Part shown: piece after piece, positions 2,580-63,524 of the stretch | How positions within the stretch are numbered: the stretch's first letter is position 1 | Layout: every line of letters starts with the position of its first letter | Assembly: GCA_039638295.1 (NCBI GenBank) | Contig: JBDIWJ010000003.1 | Location: 16,289-80,288 of the forward strand | Direction of reading: 5' to 3' | From: Candidatus Phoenicimicrobium oleiphilum | GTDB lineage: Bacteria; Atribacterota; Phoenicimicrobiia; Phoenicimicrobiales; Phoenicimicrobiaceae | DNA length: 64,000 nucleotides | Translations under genes and position numbers: made by a program | Notes under the pieces: generated by a model | Told to the model about the DNA's origin: nothing | The model's input: only the letters and a program-made list of their open reading frames with translations | Databases searched by the model: none

Positions 2580-3137
2580 TTGATTTCTACTAGTGACTTC
2601 AAGAAAGGATTGACTATTGAATTTAAGGGAGAGATATATAGTATTGTTGATTTTCTCCACGTAAAACCGGGTAAGGGTGGTGCATTTGTCCGCACTAAGC
2701 TAAAAAATATTAAAACTGGTTTAGTAGTGGATAAAACTTTTAGGGCAGGAGAAAAAATGGAGCAAGCTATAATCGATCGAAAAACTATGCAGTATTTATA
2801 TAATGATGGTGAAAATTATTATTTTATGAATAAAGAGACTTATGAACAGATATCATTACCCAAAGAGCAAATAAGTGAAATAGGGGAGTTTCTCAAAGAA
2901 GGAGAAGATGTAGAAATTATATTTTGTAAGGGTGTTGTGATAAGTGTGGAATTACCCAATTTTATGAATTTGAAAGTAATTAAGACTATGCCGGGAGTAA
3001 AGGGCAATACTGTGTCAGGAGCGCTTAAACCAGCTACATTAGAAACTGGGGCAATAATTCAAGTTCCTTTATTTATAAAAGATGGTGATATAATTAAAGT
3101 AGATACCAGGGAGAAGAGGTATATAGAAAGAGTATGA
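2580..3137 (+). CDS. efp: elongation factor P
   Basis: 185 aa starting MISTSDFKKGLTIEFKGEIY...KPGKGGAFVRTKLKN. It uses a TTG start with an AAGGGAGG RBS 8 nt upstream. Confidence 0.93.
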   Translation: MISTSDFKKGLTIEFKGEIYSIVDFLHVKPGKGGAFVRTKLKNIKTGLVVDKTFRAGEKMEQAIIDRKTMQYLYNDGENYYFMNKETYEQISLPKEQISEIGEFLKEGEDVEIIFCKGVVISVELPNFMNLKVIKTMPGVKGNTVSGALKPATLETGAIIQVPLFIKDGDIIKVDTREKRYIERV

Positions 3138-8432: not shown

Positions 8433-8510
<78 letters not shown>

Positions 8511-8586
8511 GCGGGAATAGCTCAGTTGGTAGAGCACCAGCCTTCCAAGCTGGGTGTCGCGGGTTCGAGCCCCGTTTCCCGCTCCA
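8511..8586 (+). tRNA. tRNA-Gly (anticodon TCC)
   Basis: gcgggaatagctcagttggtagagc... with anticodon loop cTTCCaa. CCA is encoded. Confidence 0.85.
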
Positions 8587-8599
8587 GATGTAAACTCTC

Positions 8600-8676
<77 letters not shown>

Positions 8677-8695
8677 ATCTAAAAATATATAATAT

Positions 8696-8774
8696 GGTGG
8701 GCGTAGCTCAGACTGGTTAGAGCCCTGGATTGTGGCTCCAGAGGTCGGGGGTTCAAATCCCCTCGCTCACCCCA
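8696..8774 (+). tRNA. tRNA-His (anticodon GTG) with G-1
   Basis: Extra 5' G, acceptor gtgggcg/cgctcac, anticodon loop tTGTGgc and discriminator C. CCA is encoded. Confidence 0.82.
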
Positions 8775-8793
8775 TATTGGTATTAAATGTTTT

Positions 8794-8870
8794 GCGCTCG
8801 TAGCCCAATTGGATAGAGCTGCGGACTTCGGATCCGATGGTTGGGGGTTCGAGTCCCTCCGAGCGCGCCA
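8794..8870 (+). tRNA. tRNA-Arg (anticodon TCG), divergent paralogue of the TCT tRNA
   Basis: Closely related to the Arg-TCT tRNA. The anticodon loop is cTTCGga. It has one mismatch in the D-stem and one at position 27-43. CCA is encoded. Confidence 0.65.
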
Positions 8871-8880
8871 AATGTTTTGT

Positions 8881-8956
8881 GGGCCGTTAGCTCAGGTGGC
8901 AGAGCACCTGACTTTTAATCAGGGTGTCACAGGTTCGAATCCTGTACGGCCCACCA
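8881..8956 (+). tRNA. tRNA-Lys (anticodon TTT)
   Basis: gggccgttagctcaggtggcagagc... with anticodon loop cTTTTaa. CCA is encoded. Confidence 0.85.
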
Positions 8957-8969
8957 CTAAAATACAAAG

Positions 8970-9054
8970 GCGAGGGTGGTGGAATTGGTAGACACGCTGG
9001 ATTTAGGATCCAGTGGGTAAAACCATGCGGGTTCGAGTCCCGCCCTTCGCACCA
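8970..9054 (+). tRNA. tRNA-Leu (anticodon TAG), class II with long variable arm
   Basis: gcgagggtggtggaattggtagacacg... with anticodon loop tTTAGga and variable arm tgggtaaaaccatgc. CCA is encoded. Confidence 0.82.
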
Positions 9055-9168: not shown

Positions 9169-10485
9169 ATGGTAGATGTTAAAATAAAAAAGAAAGAAGA
9201 TAATGAAGTAAATCTCGAAATAGAGGTTGATAAATCTGAAGTAAGTAACCAATTAGAAAAAGTATATAATGATTTATCTTATAAAGTAAAAATTCCTGGA
9301 TTTCGAAAGGGTAAAATTCCAAGAAATATTTTAAATTTGCATTTGGGAAAAGAATATTTTTATCAAAAAACTGCCGAAATACTCATACCAGGTAGTTATA
9401 ATGATGCAATAAAAAAAGTAAATATTGAACCGATTGAGCAACCAAGAATTAATATAATCCAGATAGAAGAAGGTAAACCATTGATTTATGAAGCGAGTGT
9501 TCAGGTAAAGCCAGAAGTTAAAATCGGTTCTTTAAAAGAAATAAAAATAAAAAAAGAAAATTTAAAAATAACCAGCGAAGATGTGGAAAATGAAATTAAA
9601 AGAATTCAAGAAAGTCATGCTATTTTAAAAGTAGTTAAAAATCGAGAAGCAAAGGATGGAGACTTTCTAATAATTGATGCTGAAGCTTATATTGAAGGAA
9701 AATTAATAGAAAAAAGCAAGGTCGAAAAACAGATTATTCAATTAGGAAAGAGTGCCATTCCTGAATTTAATGAAAAACTTTTGGGTTGTAAACCGGGAGA
9801 AGAGAAAGAGATAAATATCAATGTTCCTAAAGACGCAAAAGATAAAGAATTAGCAGGCAAAGAAATTATTTATAAAATTAAAGTGTTGGAAATAAAAGAG
9901 AGAGAATTACCTGAATTGAATGATGATTTTGCTAAAACAGTAGGTAAATTTAGCGATTTGAACGATCTCAAGAATTCTATCAATAAGGAGTTAAATAAGC
10001 AAATTGATAGAATTAATAAAAATAATTTTGAGCAAAAATTATTGGATAAAGTAGCTGAAATTTGCGAAGTAAAGGTGCCTGATGTTTTAGTTGAAAGAGA
10101 AGTAAATTATATGATGAAATCTTTAGAGAATGATTTAAAATCCCAAAAGATATCTTCACAAGATTATTATAAGAATATTAATTCTGATGAGGAAACAGTT
10201 AGAAAAGAGTATAAAGTCGTTGCTGAAAGAAGAATAAAGCAAGAATTAATTCTGGATAAAATTGCTCGAGAAAATGGAATTGAGGTTTCTGAAAAAGAGA
10301 TAAAAGATAAAATTAACGATATTGCTAAAGAGATTAAGCAAGACCCATTAAAAGTGGAAGCCAATTTTAAAAAGAATAATAATATAGATTCATTAAGAGA
10401 AAATATAAGGAGAGAAAAAGTAATTGATTATATTGCTAAACAAATTACCATAATTGATTCTGAAAAGGAGGAAAAAACAAAATGA
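9169..10485 (+). CDS. tig: trigger factor
   Basis: 438 aa with N-terminal ribosome-binding motif GFRKGKIPR. Sits upstream of clpP-clpX. Confidence 0.92.
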
Positions 10486-44800: not shown

Positions 44801-44865
44801 CAATAATGAAATTTTACATAAAAAATATTCATTGTTTTAAAAAAAGGAGGAAAACGTATATATAG

Positions 44866-47016
44866 ATGTTAGGATCTAATGAAATTAAAATTAATATAAA
44901 TACAAATAAAATAATTAATTTAGGAACTGGTAAAATTGCCAAACAGGCAGATGGCTCAGTAATAGTCAGCTGCGGCGAAACAACTGTACTGGTAACTGCA
45001 GTATCTTCTAAAGAGCCAAGAGAAGGAATTGACTTTTTTCCTTTATTAGTAGATTATGAGGAAAAATTTTACGCTGCAGGTAAGATACCTGGAGGATTTT
45101 TCAAAAGAGAAGGCAAACCGAGCAAGAATGCAATATTAACCTCTAGACTTATTGACCGACCATTACGACCATTATTTCCCAAGGGATATAGAAATGACGT
45201 TCAGGTTATTGCCACCGTTCTTTCTTATGATCAAAAAAATTTACCAGACATTCTTGCAATTATTGGAGCATCTTCTGCTCTATGGATATCGGAAATCCCT
45301 ATACAATGTCCAATAGGAGCAGTTAGGATTGGAATGATAAATAATGAAATTGTGGTAAATCCTACTAATGAAGAATTAGAAAATAGCGTATTAGATTTAA
45401 TCATAGCCGGCACGAAAGATTCTATTATCATGATGGAAGGCGAAGCAAAGGAAGTCCCAGAAGAAACAATTTTAAAGGCAATAGATGTAGCTCAGGAATC
45501 GATCAAAATAATCGTTGAAGGTCAAGAAAAATTATTAGATATTTTAGGAAAATCTAATGTAGAAAAGAACGAAATATTTTCAAATGCAGTAGCCAAAGAA
45601 AAAGATGATGCATATGAAAAAATAAAAAAGGACTTTGAAGAAGAAATTAAGAAAGCTATTTGTATTAACGAAAAAAAAGAACGAGAAGAATCATTAGAAG
45701 AAATATTTAATAATGTTATGGAAAAATACTCTACGGAAGAAGAGGAACAAAAATCTCTTTTGAAAAACATTTTTGATGACATTTGCCGAGAAGTTGTCCG
45801 TAGTTTAATACTCCAGGAAAAAATTAGAGTAGATGGTAGAAAATTAGATGATATTCGTCCTATTAGTTGTGAGATCGGCATACTTCCACGGGTACACGGG
45901 AGTGCTTTATTCACCAGAGGCCAAACCCAGGCTTTGGTTTTAACTACTCTTGGTACAATTAAAGATAGACAATTTATTGATACCTTAGAAGAAGAAGATT
46001 ATGAGAGATTTTATTTACATTATAATTTCCCACCTTACAGTGTTGGTGAAGTAAGTCCAAGAAGGGGTCAATCAAGAAGAGAAATTGGTCATGGTTCATT
46101 GGCAGAAAAAGCTTTAAAATTTGTAATTCCACCAGAAGAAGAGTTTCCTTATACTATTCGAGTGGTTTCTGAAATCTTAGAATCAAACGGTTCTTCTTCT
46201 ATGGCTACTGTCTGTGGAGGAAGTTTATCTCTAATGGATGCAGGAGTCCCTATAAAGAGACCGATAGCTGGAATTGCTATGGGTTTAGTAAAAGAATATG
46301 AAAATGTGGAGATTTTAACTGATATCTTAGGGATAGAAGACCATTTTGGAGATATGGATTTCAAAGCTGCTGGAAGTAGCAATGGAATTACTGCAATTCA
46401 GATGGATCTAAAAATTGCCGGTATTTCTAGAAATACGATGAATGATATTTTACGAAAATCAAAAAAAGCAAGGTTGGCTATCTTGGAAAAAATGAATGAA
46501 GTAATTTCAAAACCGAAAAAAGATTTATCTACCTATGCTCCTAAAATAACTATTATGAAGATTGATCCCACTAAAATTGGTATAGTTATTGGTCCAAGTG
46601 GGAAAAATATAAAAAAGATAATTGAGACAACCGGAGCATCAATCGACATTAAAGAGGATGGAGAAATATTTATCTCCTCTACTGATGAAAAATCAGTAAC
46701 GCAGTCTAAGAAAATGATTGAGAGTCTAGTAAAAGAAGCCAAAGTTGGAGATATATATAAAGGAAGAGTAACCCGAACTACTAATTTTGGAGCTTTTGTA
46801 GAAATTTTGCCTGGGAAAGAAGGATTGGTTCATATTTCAAAATTATCTAAAAAACGCATCGCAAAAGTTGAAGATATAGTTAAAGTAAATGATGATATAT
46901 TAGTTAAGGTTATTGGCATTGACAATCTTGGGAGAATTGATTTAAGAAAGATAGATGCTGATGAAAATAATATAGTAGAAAATGATATTACTGATAAAAA
47001 TGAAAATTATGATTAA
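44866..47016 (+). CDS. pnp: polyribonucleotide nucleotidyltransferase (PNPase)
   Basis: 716 aa with two RNase PH domains plus KH and S1 domains. Confidence 0.96.
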   Translation: MLGSNEIKININTNKIINLGTGKIAKQADGSVIVSCGETTVLVTAVSSKEPREGIDFFPLLVDYEEKFYAAGKIPGGFFKREGKPSKNAILTSRLIDRPLRPLFPKGYRNDVQVIATVLSYDQKNLPDILAIIGASSALWISEIPIQCPIGAVRIGMINNEIVVNPTNEELENSVLDLIIAGTKDSIIMMEGEAKEVPEETILKAIDVAQESIKIIVEGQEKLLDILGKSNVEKNEIFSNAVAKEKDDAYEKIKKDFEEEIKKAICINEKKEREESLEEIFNNVMEKYSTEEEEQKSLLKNIFDDICREVVRSLILQEKIRVDGRKLDDIRPISCEIGILPRVHGSALFTRGQTQALVLTTLGTIKDRQFIDTLEEEDYERFYLHYNFPPYSVGEVSPRRGQSRREIGHGSLAEKALKFVIPPEEEFPYTIRVVSEILESNGSSSMATVCGGSLSLMDAGVPIKRPIAGIAMGLVKEYENVEILTDILGIEDHFGDMDFKAAGSSNGITAIQMDLKIAGISRNTMNDILRKSKKARLAILEKMNEVISKPKKDLSTYAPKITIMKIDPTKIGIVIGPSGKNIKKIIETTGASIDIKEDGEIFISSTDEKSVTQSKKMIESLVKEAKVGDIYKGRVTRTTNFGAFVEILPGKEGLVHISKLSKKRIAKVEDIVKVNDDILVKVIGIDNLGRIDLRKIDADENNIVENDITDKNENYD

Positions 47017-52608: not shown

Positions 52609-52700
52609 AAAAGGAGGTGATAAATGAATTATTTCTGAAGTGAAATTTAAACGATGTTAATATTTTCATTATTTTCTAATAAAGAAAGGAGATTTTAGTA

Positions 52701-53744
52701 ATGAAAAACATGCTATCAAAAGTAGTTGTATTAGTAATAATATTAAGCTTATGTCTTTCTTTTGCAGCTTTCTCTGCAGAACCAGTTAAAGTTGGGTTGG
52801 TATTCGATATCGGCGGAAAGGGAGATAAATCATTTAATGACTCTGCCTGGCGTGGACTTGATTGGGCAGCAAAGGATTTTGGAATTAAACGTATTGCCTT
52901 AGAACCTGGAGTTGATGCTGATAGAGAAGTAAACCTTAGAAACCTGGCGATGTTAGGATATGATTTAGTAATTGGAGTAGGATTTTTATTTACTGACGCT
53001 ATTTCTTCAGTTGCTGATGAGTTCCCTGATACGAAATTTGCCATTGTCGATGGATTTATTCCTGATAAACCGAATGTAGTATCATTACTATTCAAGGAAC
53101 ATGAGGGTTCATTCTTAGTTGGTATGATTGCTGGTTTGAAAGCCAAAGAAGATGGCAAAGATATTGTTGGTTTTGTTGGAGGAATGGACATTCCCCTTAT
53201 TCATAAATTTGAAGCTGGTTATATAGCAGGAGTTAAATATGTTTATCCGGAATGTAAAATACTATCTGCCTATGCAGGGGATACTCCTGTAGCATTTGCT
53301 GACCCAGTAAAAGGTAAAGAATTAGCCTTATCCCAATATGATAATGGTGCCTGGATTATTTATCATGCCTCAGGTCTAACCGGTGCAGGAGTATTCGAAG
53401 CTGCCAAAGAAAGAAAAAGATACGTAATTGGAGTTGACTCCAATCAGAACTATCTGGGATACATTGAAGAAACTGGAGAAAGTTATGGTTTAACCAGTAT
53501 GCTAAAACAAGTAGATGTGTCAGTATATTTAGCTATAAAATCAGTAGTTGAAGGAACTTTCCAAGGTGGAATCGAAGAATTTGGTTTAGATAGAACTGTT
53601 GTCATTGGAGATACAACTTACTACGGAGTTTACTATGCTCTCGATAAATACAACGAAAATCTTTTATCTCCCGAAATAATAGCTCAAGTGGAAGAAGCAA
53701 AAGGTAAAATTATAAGCGGAGAAATTATTGTGCCCACTGAATAA
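52701..53744 (+). CDS. BMP-family ABC transporter substrate-binding protein (nucleoside-binding)
   Basis: Signal peptide, then a Bmp/PnrA-like fold (DIGGKGDKSFND...). It is the first gene of a four-gene ABC operon. Confidence 0.85.
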   Translation: MKNMLSKVVVLVIILSLCLSFAAFSAEPVKVGLVFDIGGKGDKSFNDSAWRGLDWAAKDFGIKRIALEPGVDADREVNLRNLAMLGYDLVIGVGFLFTDAISSVADEFPDTKFAIVDGFIPDKPNVVSLLFKEHEGSFLVGMIAGLKAKEDGKDIVGFVGGMDIPLIHKFEAGYIAGVKYVYPECKILSAYAGDTPVAFADPVKGKELALSQYDNGAWIIYHASGLTGAGVFEAAKERKRYVIGVDSNQNYLGYIEETGESYGLTSMLKQVDVSVYLAIKSVVEGTFQGGIEEFGLDRTVVIGDTTYYGVYYALDKYNENLLSPEIIAQVEEAKGKIISGEIIVPTE

Positions 53745-61069: not shown

Positions 61070-61612
61070 GTGACTATCGACTTGTTAGATCTTTATATTG
61101 GTAAAGAATTAACCGATAAAGAGATCAGTAAAATTATTTTGGAAGATGAAACAGAAAAAGGAAAAAAATATGTTTTAAGACTACTAAACCGTAGATGTTA
61201 TAGTAAATATGAAATCATCAACAAATTAAAAATAAAAGGTTTTTCTAAAAATGTTATTCCTGTTATTATTTCTTGGTTAGAAAAGAAAGAATATATTGAT
61301 GATGAATTGTTTGCTACTATGTGGGCTCAGTCCAGGATGAAAAATAAACCTATAGGAAGATATAGATTAAATCAGGAATTAAAAATAAAAGGAATTGACC
61401 AAGAGATTATTAATAAAATATTAGATAAAATTTATAATGATGTAGACGAGTTAACTTTAGCGCGAAATCTTATTAATAAAAAAATTACTTCATCAAAGCT
61501 AAAAAATATATCTGTAAATCCTGATAGAATATATAATTTTTTATTAAGAAGAGGGTTCTCAAGAGAAATATCTAAAAAAATCTACGATGAACTAAACAAT
61601 GAAAATGTATAG
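61070..61612 (+). CDS. recX: recombination regulator RecX
   Basis: 180 aa triple-helical repeat protein downstream of recA. GTG start. Confidence 0.8.
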   Translation: MTIDLLDLYIGKELTDKEISKIILEDETEKGKKYVLRLLNRRCYSKYEIINKLKIKGFSKNVIPVIISWLEKKEYIDDELFATMWAQSRMKNKPIGRYRLNQELKIKGIDQEIINKILDKIYNDVDELTLARNLINKKITSSKLKNISVNPDRIYNFLLRRGFSREISKKIYDELNNENV

Positions 61613-61748
61613 TGTAAAGTGTAATAAGTAACGTGTAATAAATAACTGTTTTTATAATTTTAAGTTTAATCTCATAACTTATTACCTATTACTTGTTACT
61701 GTATTTTATACGAGACACGATTCACGAAATACGAATTTAGTTATTTGA
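61611..61748. repeat. heptamer-tiled inverted-repeat element
   Basis: The arm gtgtaaagtgtaataagtaacgtgtaataaataac faces cttattacctattacttgttac. This is followed by cgagaca cgattca cgaaata cgaattt heptamers. Confidence 0.8.
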
Positions 61749-61773
61749 CTTTTTAAATTATAAAGGTTAAAAT
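61745..61773 (+). promoter_or_regulatory. putative sigma-70 promoter of rny
   Basis: TTGACT, a 17-nt spacer, then TAAAAT. Confidence 0.5.
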
Positions 61774-61931
61774 ATTTTAAGTAATTTTTTCTAAATTTTT
61801 TATAATCTCATACACTAAAAACGGTTTCTTAATTAGATAAAAATAGTTCTTGCATATAAAGATTATAAAGTATAAAAATAAATTACATAACCTATGTACC
61901 TTGTAAATTGAATAATAGGAGGTGAAACAAC

Positions 61932-63464
61932 ATTAAAATTTACTACATTTTTATTTTAAACACTTTAATTGGTATAATAATAGGCTATCTCTTGTATAAA
62001 TATATCGCTAAAACAAAAATATCCTCAGCAGAAACATATTATAAAAATATTATAGAAAATGCAAAAAGGGAAGCCGATTCAATTAAAAAAGAATCTATTT
62101 TACAGGCAAGAGAAGAATCTTATAAAATAAAAAGAGATGCCGAAATTTCAATTAGAGAAAAAAATAATGAGCTACAAAAACTTGAAGACCAGTTATTAAA
62201 AAAGAGCAATAATTTAGTCCAAAAGATGGATGCTCTTGAAAAAAAAGAAAGATCATTAAACTATAAAGAACAAGAATTAGAAAATGACATACAAAAAGTC
62301 AAAAATATATACCAGGAACAAAGAAATAAATTAATAAAAATTTCTAGAATGAGTGTTGAGGAGGCAAAGAAAGAACTCCTCAATAATTTAGAAAAAGAAC
62401 TTACTCATGAAACCGGGAAGATAATAAAAGAGATTGAAGAGCAGGCTTATGCAGAAGCAGATAAAAAATCCAGAAATGTAATATCATTAGCAATTCAAAG
62501 ATATGCTGCGGACCATACCGTAGAAACCACAACATCATTTGTACCATTACCTAATGAAGATATGAAGGGTAGGATAATTGGGAGAGAAGGTAGAAATATC
62601 AGGACTTTCGAGATGTTAACCGGAGTTGATTTAATTGTTGATGATACCCCAGAGGCAGTAATTATTTCTGGATTTGATCCTATACGAAGAGAAATTGCCA
62701 AAATTGCTTTAGAAAAATTAATCACTGATGGACGTATTCAACCTGCCAGGATTGAGGAAGTAATAGAAAAATCTAAAGCAATTGTTAACAGTAAAATTCA
62801 AGAAGAAGGGGAACAGGTAATTTTTGACCTAAATATTAAAAATATTAGTTCAAAATTAATTCACCTGTTGGGTAAATTGAAATATCGTACGAGTTATGGT
62901 CAAAATGTCTTGCAACATTCTAAAGAAGTAGCTTATCTTTCTGAGATTATGGCTTCTGAATTAGGTGTAAACGCCCAATTAGCTAAAAGAGCAGGACTTC
63001 TTCATGATATAGGAAAGGCTGTAGATCATGAAATAGAAGGGCCTCACGCTATAATAGGTTCTGAAATAGCTAAGAAAAATGAGGAAAGTTTCGAGGTGAT
63101 TAATGCTATTGCTGCTCATCATGGAGAGATTGAACCAAAAACTATTGAGGCTATTTTAGTTCAATCTGCTGACGCAATATCTGCTTCACGTCCTGGTGCT
63201 CGACGTGAAATGTTGGAAACTTATGTAAAGAGATTAGAAAAATTAGAAGAAATTGCCAATTCTTTTGAAGGAGTTGAAAAAGCATTTGCTATACAGGCAG
63301 GTAGAGAGATAAGAATAATCGTTAATCCAGAAGAAATAGACGATTATGTAGCTAAAAAGTTAGCGAGAGATATTTCAAAAAAAGTAGAAAAAAATATAGA
63401 TTATCCTGGCCAAATTAAAGTGATAATTATCAGAGAAGTTCGTGCTGTAGAATATGCAAAATAA
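61932..63464 (+). CDS. rny: ribonuclease Y
   Basis: KH and HD domains. The ORF-track TTG at 61992 would delete the conserved N-terminal TM anchor ([19 protein letters not shown]) that is encoded in frame upstream. The only RBS (TAGGAGGTGA at 61915-61924) is positioned for ATT 61932. Confidence 0.85.
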
Positions 63465-63483: not shown

Positions 63484-63524
63484 AATAGGGAGGTAATTTT
63501 TATAAATAAATTACCTCCCTATTT
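63484..63524 (+). terminator. intrinsic terminator after rny
   Basis: Hairpin aaatagggaggtaat/attacctccctattt with an AT-rich tail. Confidence 0.7.

Follow-up and report, generated by a model that had tools for sequence, protein, structure and literature searches.

The probable AUU start of the RNase Y gene of Candidatus Phoenicimicrobium oleiphilum

The gene for RNase Y (rny) of Candidatus Phoenicimicrobium oleiphilum, studied here in a contiguous stretch of 64,000 nucleotides (the window), probably begins at the ATT codon at position 61932. An earlier note made from the letters of the window had proposed this start, and comparison with relatives supports it. The species is uncultured and has been described through metagenome assemblies alone. 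The open reading frame (ORF) track places the gene at TTG 61992..63464 on the + strand and gives it 490 residues; translation from ATT 61932 would yield 510 residues and retain an N-terminal membrane helix. The proposed codon stands at normal spacing behind an extended Shine-Dalgarno (SD) sequence, and the non-canonical codon itself is conserved in two related families.

The start region of rny and its conservation in relatives

The nearest in-frame stop 5′ of TTG 61992 is the TGA at 61923-61925, from which the frame runs open through 22 sense codons to the TTG, and there is no in-frame ATG, GTG or TTG among the codons of 61926-61991. The earlier note had described this open frame, and direct reading gives the same result. 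Two in-frame ATT codons lie within it, at 61932-34 and at 61938-40, the second of which had likewise been pointed out, and the text around 61896-61946 reads ...GTACCTTGTAAATTGAATAATAGGAGGTGAAACAACATTAAAATTTACTAC.... The strong SD motif reported previously is present, though its coordinates had been given one base too low (TAGGAGGTGA occupies 61916-61925, not 61915-61924). Its end is separated from ATT 61932 by 6 nt (61926-61931), and the last G of GGAGG by 9 nt. Absent from the earlier note was a GTG at 61922-24, which lies within the SD, is out of frame with rny (GTG AAA CAA CAT TAA) and opens a frame of four codons whose TAA stop overlaps ATT 61932 (61922..61936, + strand). The features of the start region are as follows:

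61917..61925, + strand: extended SD sequence AGGAGGTGA, with nine contiguous pairs to the canonical 16S 3′ tail
61923..61925, + strand: in-frame TGA closing the rny frame upstream, formed by the last three SD bases and conserved in about 45 distinct sequences
61926..61931, + strand: 6-nt spacer AACAAC between the SD and the proposed start
61932..61934, + strand: ATT, the proposed rny start codon, 9 nt past GGAGG; the aligned codon is ATT in 71 of 75 and ATA in 4 of 75 genes
61938..61940, + strand: second ATT, an alternative start, 15 nt past GGAGG; the aligned codon is variable
61938..61994, + strand: codons for residues 3-21, which form the N-terminal membrane helix, from hydropathy, the first positions of TIGR03319 and PF12072, and the lack of indels and stops in relatives
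61992..61994, + strand: TTG, the ORF-track start, without SD (-4.4 kcal/mol) and not conserved
61932..63464, + strand: rny coding sequence as re-called, 510 residues plus stop, a TIGR03319 equivalog at 721.9 bits

Duplex energies were computed against a canonical 16S 3′ tail (CACCUCCU), which is assumed here, the window holding no 16S gene. On this basis the duplex of the rny SD with the anti-SD tail reaches -16.1 kcal/mol and ranks second among the 48 gene starts of the window, and TTG 61992 shows essentially no pairing. The strong-SD genes of the window have 4-13 nt, or by another count 6-11 nt, between GGAGG and start, mostly 8-9 nt, compared to 9 nt for ATT 61932 and 15 nt for ATT 61938. 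When every GGAGG of the window outside other ORFs was scanned, a near-cognate codon opening a long ORF that has no canonical start was found only at rny. We regard this as a trait of the gene and not as a sign that start-codon use is relaxed overall.

Family profiles and divergence identify the first 20 residues as a homologous membrane anchor that is translated. The 510-residue protein matches the RNase Y equivalog model of NCBIfam, TIGR03319, at 721.9 bits over positions 3-514 of 514 (cut-off 454), and the version from TTG 61992 matches it at 704.7 bits over positions 19-514, so that the 20 upstream codons are worth 17 bits. For PF12072 (RNase_Y_N) the match extends over profile positions 5-201 with the upstream codons and 22-201 without them, a gain of 24 bits, and the RNase_Y_N, KH and HD domains are all found (PF12072, PF00013, PF01966). 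Residues 3-21 have a Kyte-Doolittle value of 2.14 over 19 residues, and this is the sole stretch of the protein above 1.6. Both the gain in profile score and the hydropathy agree with the earlier claim that an anchor is encoded upstream of TTG 61992, and only a start at or before 61938 provides the membrane helix of RNase Y. The first 22 codons contain no stops and no indels and retain an I-G-x-x-I-G-(Y/F) motif in all 75 distinct genes compared. Because, in addition, second codon positions are the least divergent (0.11-0.12, compared to 0.16-0.23 for first and 0.23-0.40 for third positions), we conclude that the region is translated.

The comparison suggested by the earlier note, an alignment of rny orthologues to see which start is conserved, favours ATT 61932. 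We fetched 164 loci overall and aligned the 5′ ends of those from the Atribacterota (25 species representatives and about 58 metagenome loci; labels beginning with L denote loci). The closest protein matches, at 85-100% identity, are from this phylum, and their named members assign the group of the window to Candidatus Phoenicimicrobiaceae; a more distant group at 66-71% identity is Candidatus Stramentimicrobiaceae, the sister family, and both belong to the class Phoenicimicrobiia (JS1). The codon aligned to 61932 is ATT in 71 and ATA in 4 of the 75 distinct genes (80 loci from the two families), where the gene scan demanded ATT or ATA at this position, so that the informative quantity is the ratio of the two; every locus was also inspected individually. 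The codon sits 8-9 nt past a GGAGG or GGGGG core in all Atribacterota lineages, and this distance is a constant feature. A GG(A/G)GGTG is present in every Atribacterota locus aligned.

Other candidate positions vary. The codon aligned to 61938 is ATT, ATG, ATA, GTT, ACA, ACG or GCA, and that aligned to TTG 61992 is TTA in the closest relative (L001) and CTC in others such as L003. Three of the four ATA variants (L012, L117/118 and L122) have an ATG two codons downstream, and in these lineages it looks, from the alignment, as if the start has moved, perhaps in just one or two evolutionary events.

Within the family of the window the layout is ...GTACCTTGTAAATTGAATAWTAGGAGGTGA followed by 6 variable nt and ATT AAA ATT TAC.... 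The same in-frame TGA, followed by an open, hydrophobic and indel-free N-terminus without a canonical start, is shared by 13 of the 14 close species representatives and by dozens of contigs from metagenomes. In all, about 45 distinct relatives from independent assemblies share the layout of TGA and ATT and, like rny of the window, have no canonical in-frame start ahead of the conserved N-terminal codons. The 6-nt spacer itself changes freely (AGTAAT, AATAAT, AATAAC, AGCACA, AGTTAC and others), with a divergence of 0.23. In the sister family, and in a sub-lineage of the family of the window typified by L005, the spacer is 5 nt long, one base shorter, which places the GTG of the SD in frame. Gene callers pick this in-frame GTG and report proteins of 513 residues starting with V or M.

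Promoter, leader and other features of the window

Upstream of the start lie a promoter and a leader with blocks that are conserved in relatives:

61745..61773, + strand: sigma-70-type promoter, TTGACT, 17 nt and TAAAAT, with 10 of 12 matches; the only promoter-like match in 61550-62050
61804..61828, + strand: mid-leader conserved block AATCTC...CGGTTTC, from the upstream alignment, in the family of the window only
61896..61925, + strand: nearly invariant 30-nt leader block GTACCTTGTAAATTGAATAATAGGAGGTGA, ending in the SD, recognised by its low divergence among 45 distinct sequences
61897..61902, + strand: anti-SD-like arm UACCUU, which can pair with GGAGGU(G) of the SD

The promoter implies a predicted transcription start near 61780 and a 5′ untranslated region (UTR) of about 150 nt. 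The two families share this element as TTGAC(T/A), 17 nt and T(A/T)AAAT: 59 distinct Atribacterota UTRs carry it, 118-205 nt ahead of the ATT. Structure prediction gave no consensus fold for the mid-leader block.

Across the two Atribacterota families the 30-nt leader block is far more constant than its surroundings, with a mean pairwise divergence of 0.017 per site compared to 0.35 in the 20 nt upstream and to the value given above for the spacer. Of the 164 fetched loci, 82 have its core CCTTKTAAAYTRAATA a short way ahead of rny; these are without exception Atribacterota, and the core is missing from every locus of another phylum. The motif occurs once in the window, with no further copies beyond chance, and exactly once in each Atribacterota locus apart from one contig, L120 (BART01000258.1). 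At positions 300-971 of this contig the rny promoter and leader appear again with the first 12 or so codons, fused to an inverted piece of the central part of rny, and its assembly is most likely chimeric. Searching Rfam at the gathering threshold gave no match in the leader and returned just seven transfer RNAs in the window.

Pairing of UACCUU with GGAGGU(G) gives a hairpin that is the minimum-free-energy structure in six representatives, which cover both families and variant sub-lineages, at -6 to -9.7 kcal/mol. The same helix is the sole consensus helix returned by RNAalifold, even with the whole 5′ UTR included, and the loop GUAAAUUGAAUA is strictly conserved. From these folds it is plausible that the UACCUU arm acts as an element occluding the SD.

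Other readings of the leader were tried and dropped. The leader block was rejected as a promoter, as it does not match the spacing of -35 and -10 elements and the promoter some 150 nt further upstream is better conserved. A long-range pairing of GUAAAUU (61903-09) with AAUUUAC (61937-43) is absent in the sister family and in the lineages with ATG, and does not appear in the minimum-free-energy folds. The correlation of AAT or ATT in the loop with AAC or AAT in the spacer is phylogenetic and does not reflect base pairing. Finally, a short ORF from ATG 61894 (MYLVN*) was rejected as a leader peptide, since many relatives have ACG in place of its ATG and the sister family lacks it.

Just past the rny stop, at 63485-63522, an inverted repeat (ATAGGGAGGTAATTT on both strands) could form the stem of a terminator. 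Further away, a perfect extended SD (AAAGGAGGTGATAA) at 52613-52639 is followed by a mini-ORF of four codons, ATG AAT TAT TTC TGA (MNYF*), about 60 nt upstream of a cluster of ABC-transporter genes beginning at 52701, and this could be a leader peptide or a regulatory upstream ORF. The seven transfer RNA genes are clustered at 8433-9051 on the + strand. As nearly all long ORFs of the window are on the + strand and the cumulative GC skew climbs steadily, the window appears to lie wholly on the leading strand.

A proposed mechanism and its alternatives

The arrangement suggests the following mechanism. Transcribed from the conserved promoter with its 5′ UTR, the rny messenger would be bound by the 30S subunit through the nine-base SD AGGAGGUGA (61917-25), placing AUU 61932 in the P site, 9 nt past GGAGG. 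The extended SD would hold the 30S so that the weak AUU is accepted, and fMet-tRNA would initiate there to give the 510-residue RNase Y with its N-terminal membrane helix. The in-frame UGA would then be merely the tail of the SD, and the GUG within the SD would go unused. By analogy with known AUU and AUA starts, such a codon should yield a fraction of AUG-level initiation and be sensitive to IF3 proofreading, so that RNase Y would most likely be made at a low and tunable rate. A further level of control over translation is probably provided by the invariant leader, whose UACCUU arm could occlude the SD.

Several observations weigh against this picture, and we gather them here. The canonical anti-SD is an assumption for this organism. 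Among the 36 columns with conserved Ile, that of 61932 is the most uniform, but its value of 0.95 only modestly exceeds those of the next (0.92 and 0.91; typically 0.5-0.85), and the aligned sequences share ancestry, so that counts exaggerate the number of independent events. A spacing of 15 nt, as for ATT 61938, is feasible though unusual, given that GGAGG lies 15 nt away from ATG 44866. In the sister family, a start at the in-frame GTG may also be compatible with the sequence. As for the hairpin, it shows no compensatory pairs, both arms being invariant apart from one one-sided change of U-A to U-G, and its z-scores against shuffled sequences (-1.9 to +0.4) are not significant. The gene at ATG 44866 is itself an oddity of the window: the codon opens an ORF of 716 residues (start region 44846-44868), directly after an in-frame TAG, and its spacing is unusually long for the genome.

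A start at AUU 61938, alone or together with AUU 61932, would give a 508-residue protein that still carries the membrane helix; it seems to us unlikely. The corresponding codon is ATG in L002, L012, L117/118, L122 and L124, one database record of a relative (P0027, locus L163) starts at the equivalent ATT, and the spacing has its precedent in ATG 44866; however, the codon is not conserved (the L005 sub-lineage has GTT, the sister family ACA, ACG or GCA), and 15 nt is beyond the range of the other strong-SD genes, whereas ATT 61932 is the universally conserved codon and has the usual spacing. Explanations other than these two AUU codons, or their joint use, are improbable even when taken together. 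One of them has ribosomes starting at GTG 61922 and then either shifting by +1 into the rny frame or terminating at TAA 61934-36 and re-initiating in it. This GTG is invariant, is in frame and used by gene callers in the sister family and the L005 sub-lineage, and opens a mini-frame whose stop overlaps ATT 61932. It nevertheless abuts the G-run with zero spacing and so cannot occupy the P site while the SD is paired, and re-initiation would itself use AUU 61932. The mini-frame is only 2-4 codons long in relatives and varies (GTG AAG TAA, GTG AAA TAA, GTG AAG TGA and others), with no conserved slippery codon, and we rejected a frameshift of the prfB type on these grounds. The family of the window also provides a natural frameshift test: with the GTG out of frame there, it is dispensable for rny. 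Judged from this alignment, the embedded GTG is probably not used as a start in that family, and we consider the whole scheme very unlikely.

Still less credible is that TTG 61992 is the true start and RNase Y a soluble protein without an anchor, the upstream open frame being a relic. The TTG is the first canonical in-frame start, but it has no SD, is replaced by TTA in the closest relative and CTC in others, and is preceded by 20 codons that are open, free of indels and hydrophobic in 75 distinct genes and that match the family profiles; it is most likely an ordinary Leu codon.

Least likely of all, in our view, is that the layout is an artefact or a case of recoding. Deleting one A of GTGAAAC, as if a base had been inserted, would put the GTG in frame as in L005, and TTG 61908 lies in frame with the TGA, so that reading the TGA as sense would provide a canonical start. 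The earlier note had itself allowed for a sequencing error hiding a true ATG. That caveat, together with assembly error or a truncated protein, can be set aside: the extra base is present in the roughly 45 distinct sequences from independent assemblies, and L164, a second assembly of the species that differs at only 2 positions in 3200 nt, has the same start region. Recoding of TGA (tables 4 and 25) was rejected because the window tiles into long ORFs with TGA as stop. TGA terminates several of them with the next gene following immediately, for instance 9169-10485, which overlaps the next gene by ATGA. TTG 61908, which lies upstream of the TGA, was discarded as a start since it lacks an SD, L011 has TTA in its place and the sister family has it out of frame.

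Known systems and implications

Going by its sequence, rny with its start at ATT 61932 is a further case of a known arrangement, an extended SD followed by an AUU or AUA start, as in infC, pcnB, cvfC1 and ccpN. In E. coli, infC (encoding IF3) and pcnB have AUU starts, and the weak codon limits translation, that of infC being responsive to IF3 (Binns & Masters 2002 and Hecht 2017, as cited in PMC13009471). Like these, rny lies on the chromosome and has an SD followed by a conserved AUU as its proposed start, though the logic of infC autoregulation, where IF3 proofreads the start of its own gene, is absent for rny, and gene and phylum differ. The analogy to E. coli infC drawn in the earlier note is therefore apt, with a set of genes from S. 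aureus providing a closer precedent. There, the starts of cvfC1 (AUU) and of ccpN and infC (AUA) are directed by extended SDs, with codon and SD conserved among relatives, and in reporter assays cvfC1 and ccpN reached about 10% of the expression obtained with AUG (PMC13009471). The S. aureus genes and rny share a very strong extended SD, proper spacing and a conserved AUU or AUA start. They differ in that the S. aureus starts were shown by Ribo-RET and reporters (PMC13009471) and that of rny is predicted from sequence comparison, and in that only in rny does the SD tail supply an in-frame stop and the SD embed a GTG. A resemblance to the +1 frameshift of prfB, in which an SD-like element also lies near an in-frame stop at the 5′ end of the gene, is superficial, as rny lacks a conserved slippery codon, its short frame is variable and the SD distance is wrong; rny is not a member of this class.

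A second line of comparison concerns RNase Y itself. In B. subtilis the enzyme limits its own synthesis via the 5′ UTR and the first 100 or so nt of the ORF, and this control is linked to how far ribosomes occupy the initiation site (PMC10303841), which makes a weak rny start biologically sensible. Both B. subtilis and Atribacterota rny have a 5′ UTR, and a weak start with a conserved leader fits control linked to occupancy, although no sequence similarity was found between the two leaders. Among 55 rny loci from outside the Atribacterota, many also have weak TTG or GTG starts behind conserved leaders, though these genomes are interrelated and the pattern is only suggestive. Many of the Clostridia loci L033-L074 have TTG starts behind a conserved leader GAAGGAGTGTGAGATGGG about 25 nt before the start, with an in-frame TGA just ahead of it. 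Weak starts and conserved leaders may be a general trait of rny. Two further loci, L027 (from a Bacillota metagenome-assembled genome) and L076 (from an unclassified bacterium), carry GGGGGGTGA, 5 nt and ATC at the rny start (both at about 2975-3010), with GTG in frame. This is the layout of the Atribacterota sister family, and L076 has the I-N-T residues as well; it may predate the phylum or have arisen by convergence.

We found no paper that ties either RNase Y or the Atribacterota to a non-canonical start. NCBI records of three relatives do give rny an ATT start, two of them (P0031, locus L161, and P0021, locus L162) at the equivalent of 61932 and the third, that of L163 mentioned above, at the equivalent of 61938. 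The lengths called for this gene in the 120 best-matching database relatives are 430, 471, 476, 481, 490, 491, 494, 496, 499, 503, 508, 510 and 513 residues, and more than ten different lengths for one gene are a signature of inconsistent start calling. Most gene callers cannot use ATT, and many RNase Y entries from the Atribacterota consequently lack the anchor or start at a GTG that is probably unused. The 510-residue call from ATT 61932 would correct the annotation here and supply a rule for the class Phoenicimicrobiia. The one-base difference in spacer between the sister families is a rare natural experiment that separates the embedded GTG from the true start, and in its nearly invariant leader rny has a candidate regulatory RNA for which Rfam holds no family.

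A bolder reading, which we hold to be doubtful, is that the leader, the GTG and TGA embedded in the SD and the AUU together form a dedicated translational switch for RNase Y that is specific to the class Phoenicimicrobiia (JS1). If so, the anti-SD-like arm and its conserved loop would be opened or closed by a factor such as RNase Y itself, the level of IF3 or another RNA-binding protein, and synthesis of the main nuclease initiating decay would be set at the initiation step and not by decay of its messenger as in Bacillus. Quite apart from such a switch, a start at AUU 61932 would place RNase Y among the few genes in which an extended SD precedes an AUU start of deep conservation, and implies that the dosage of RNase Y in these bacteria would be limited at initiation.

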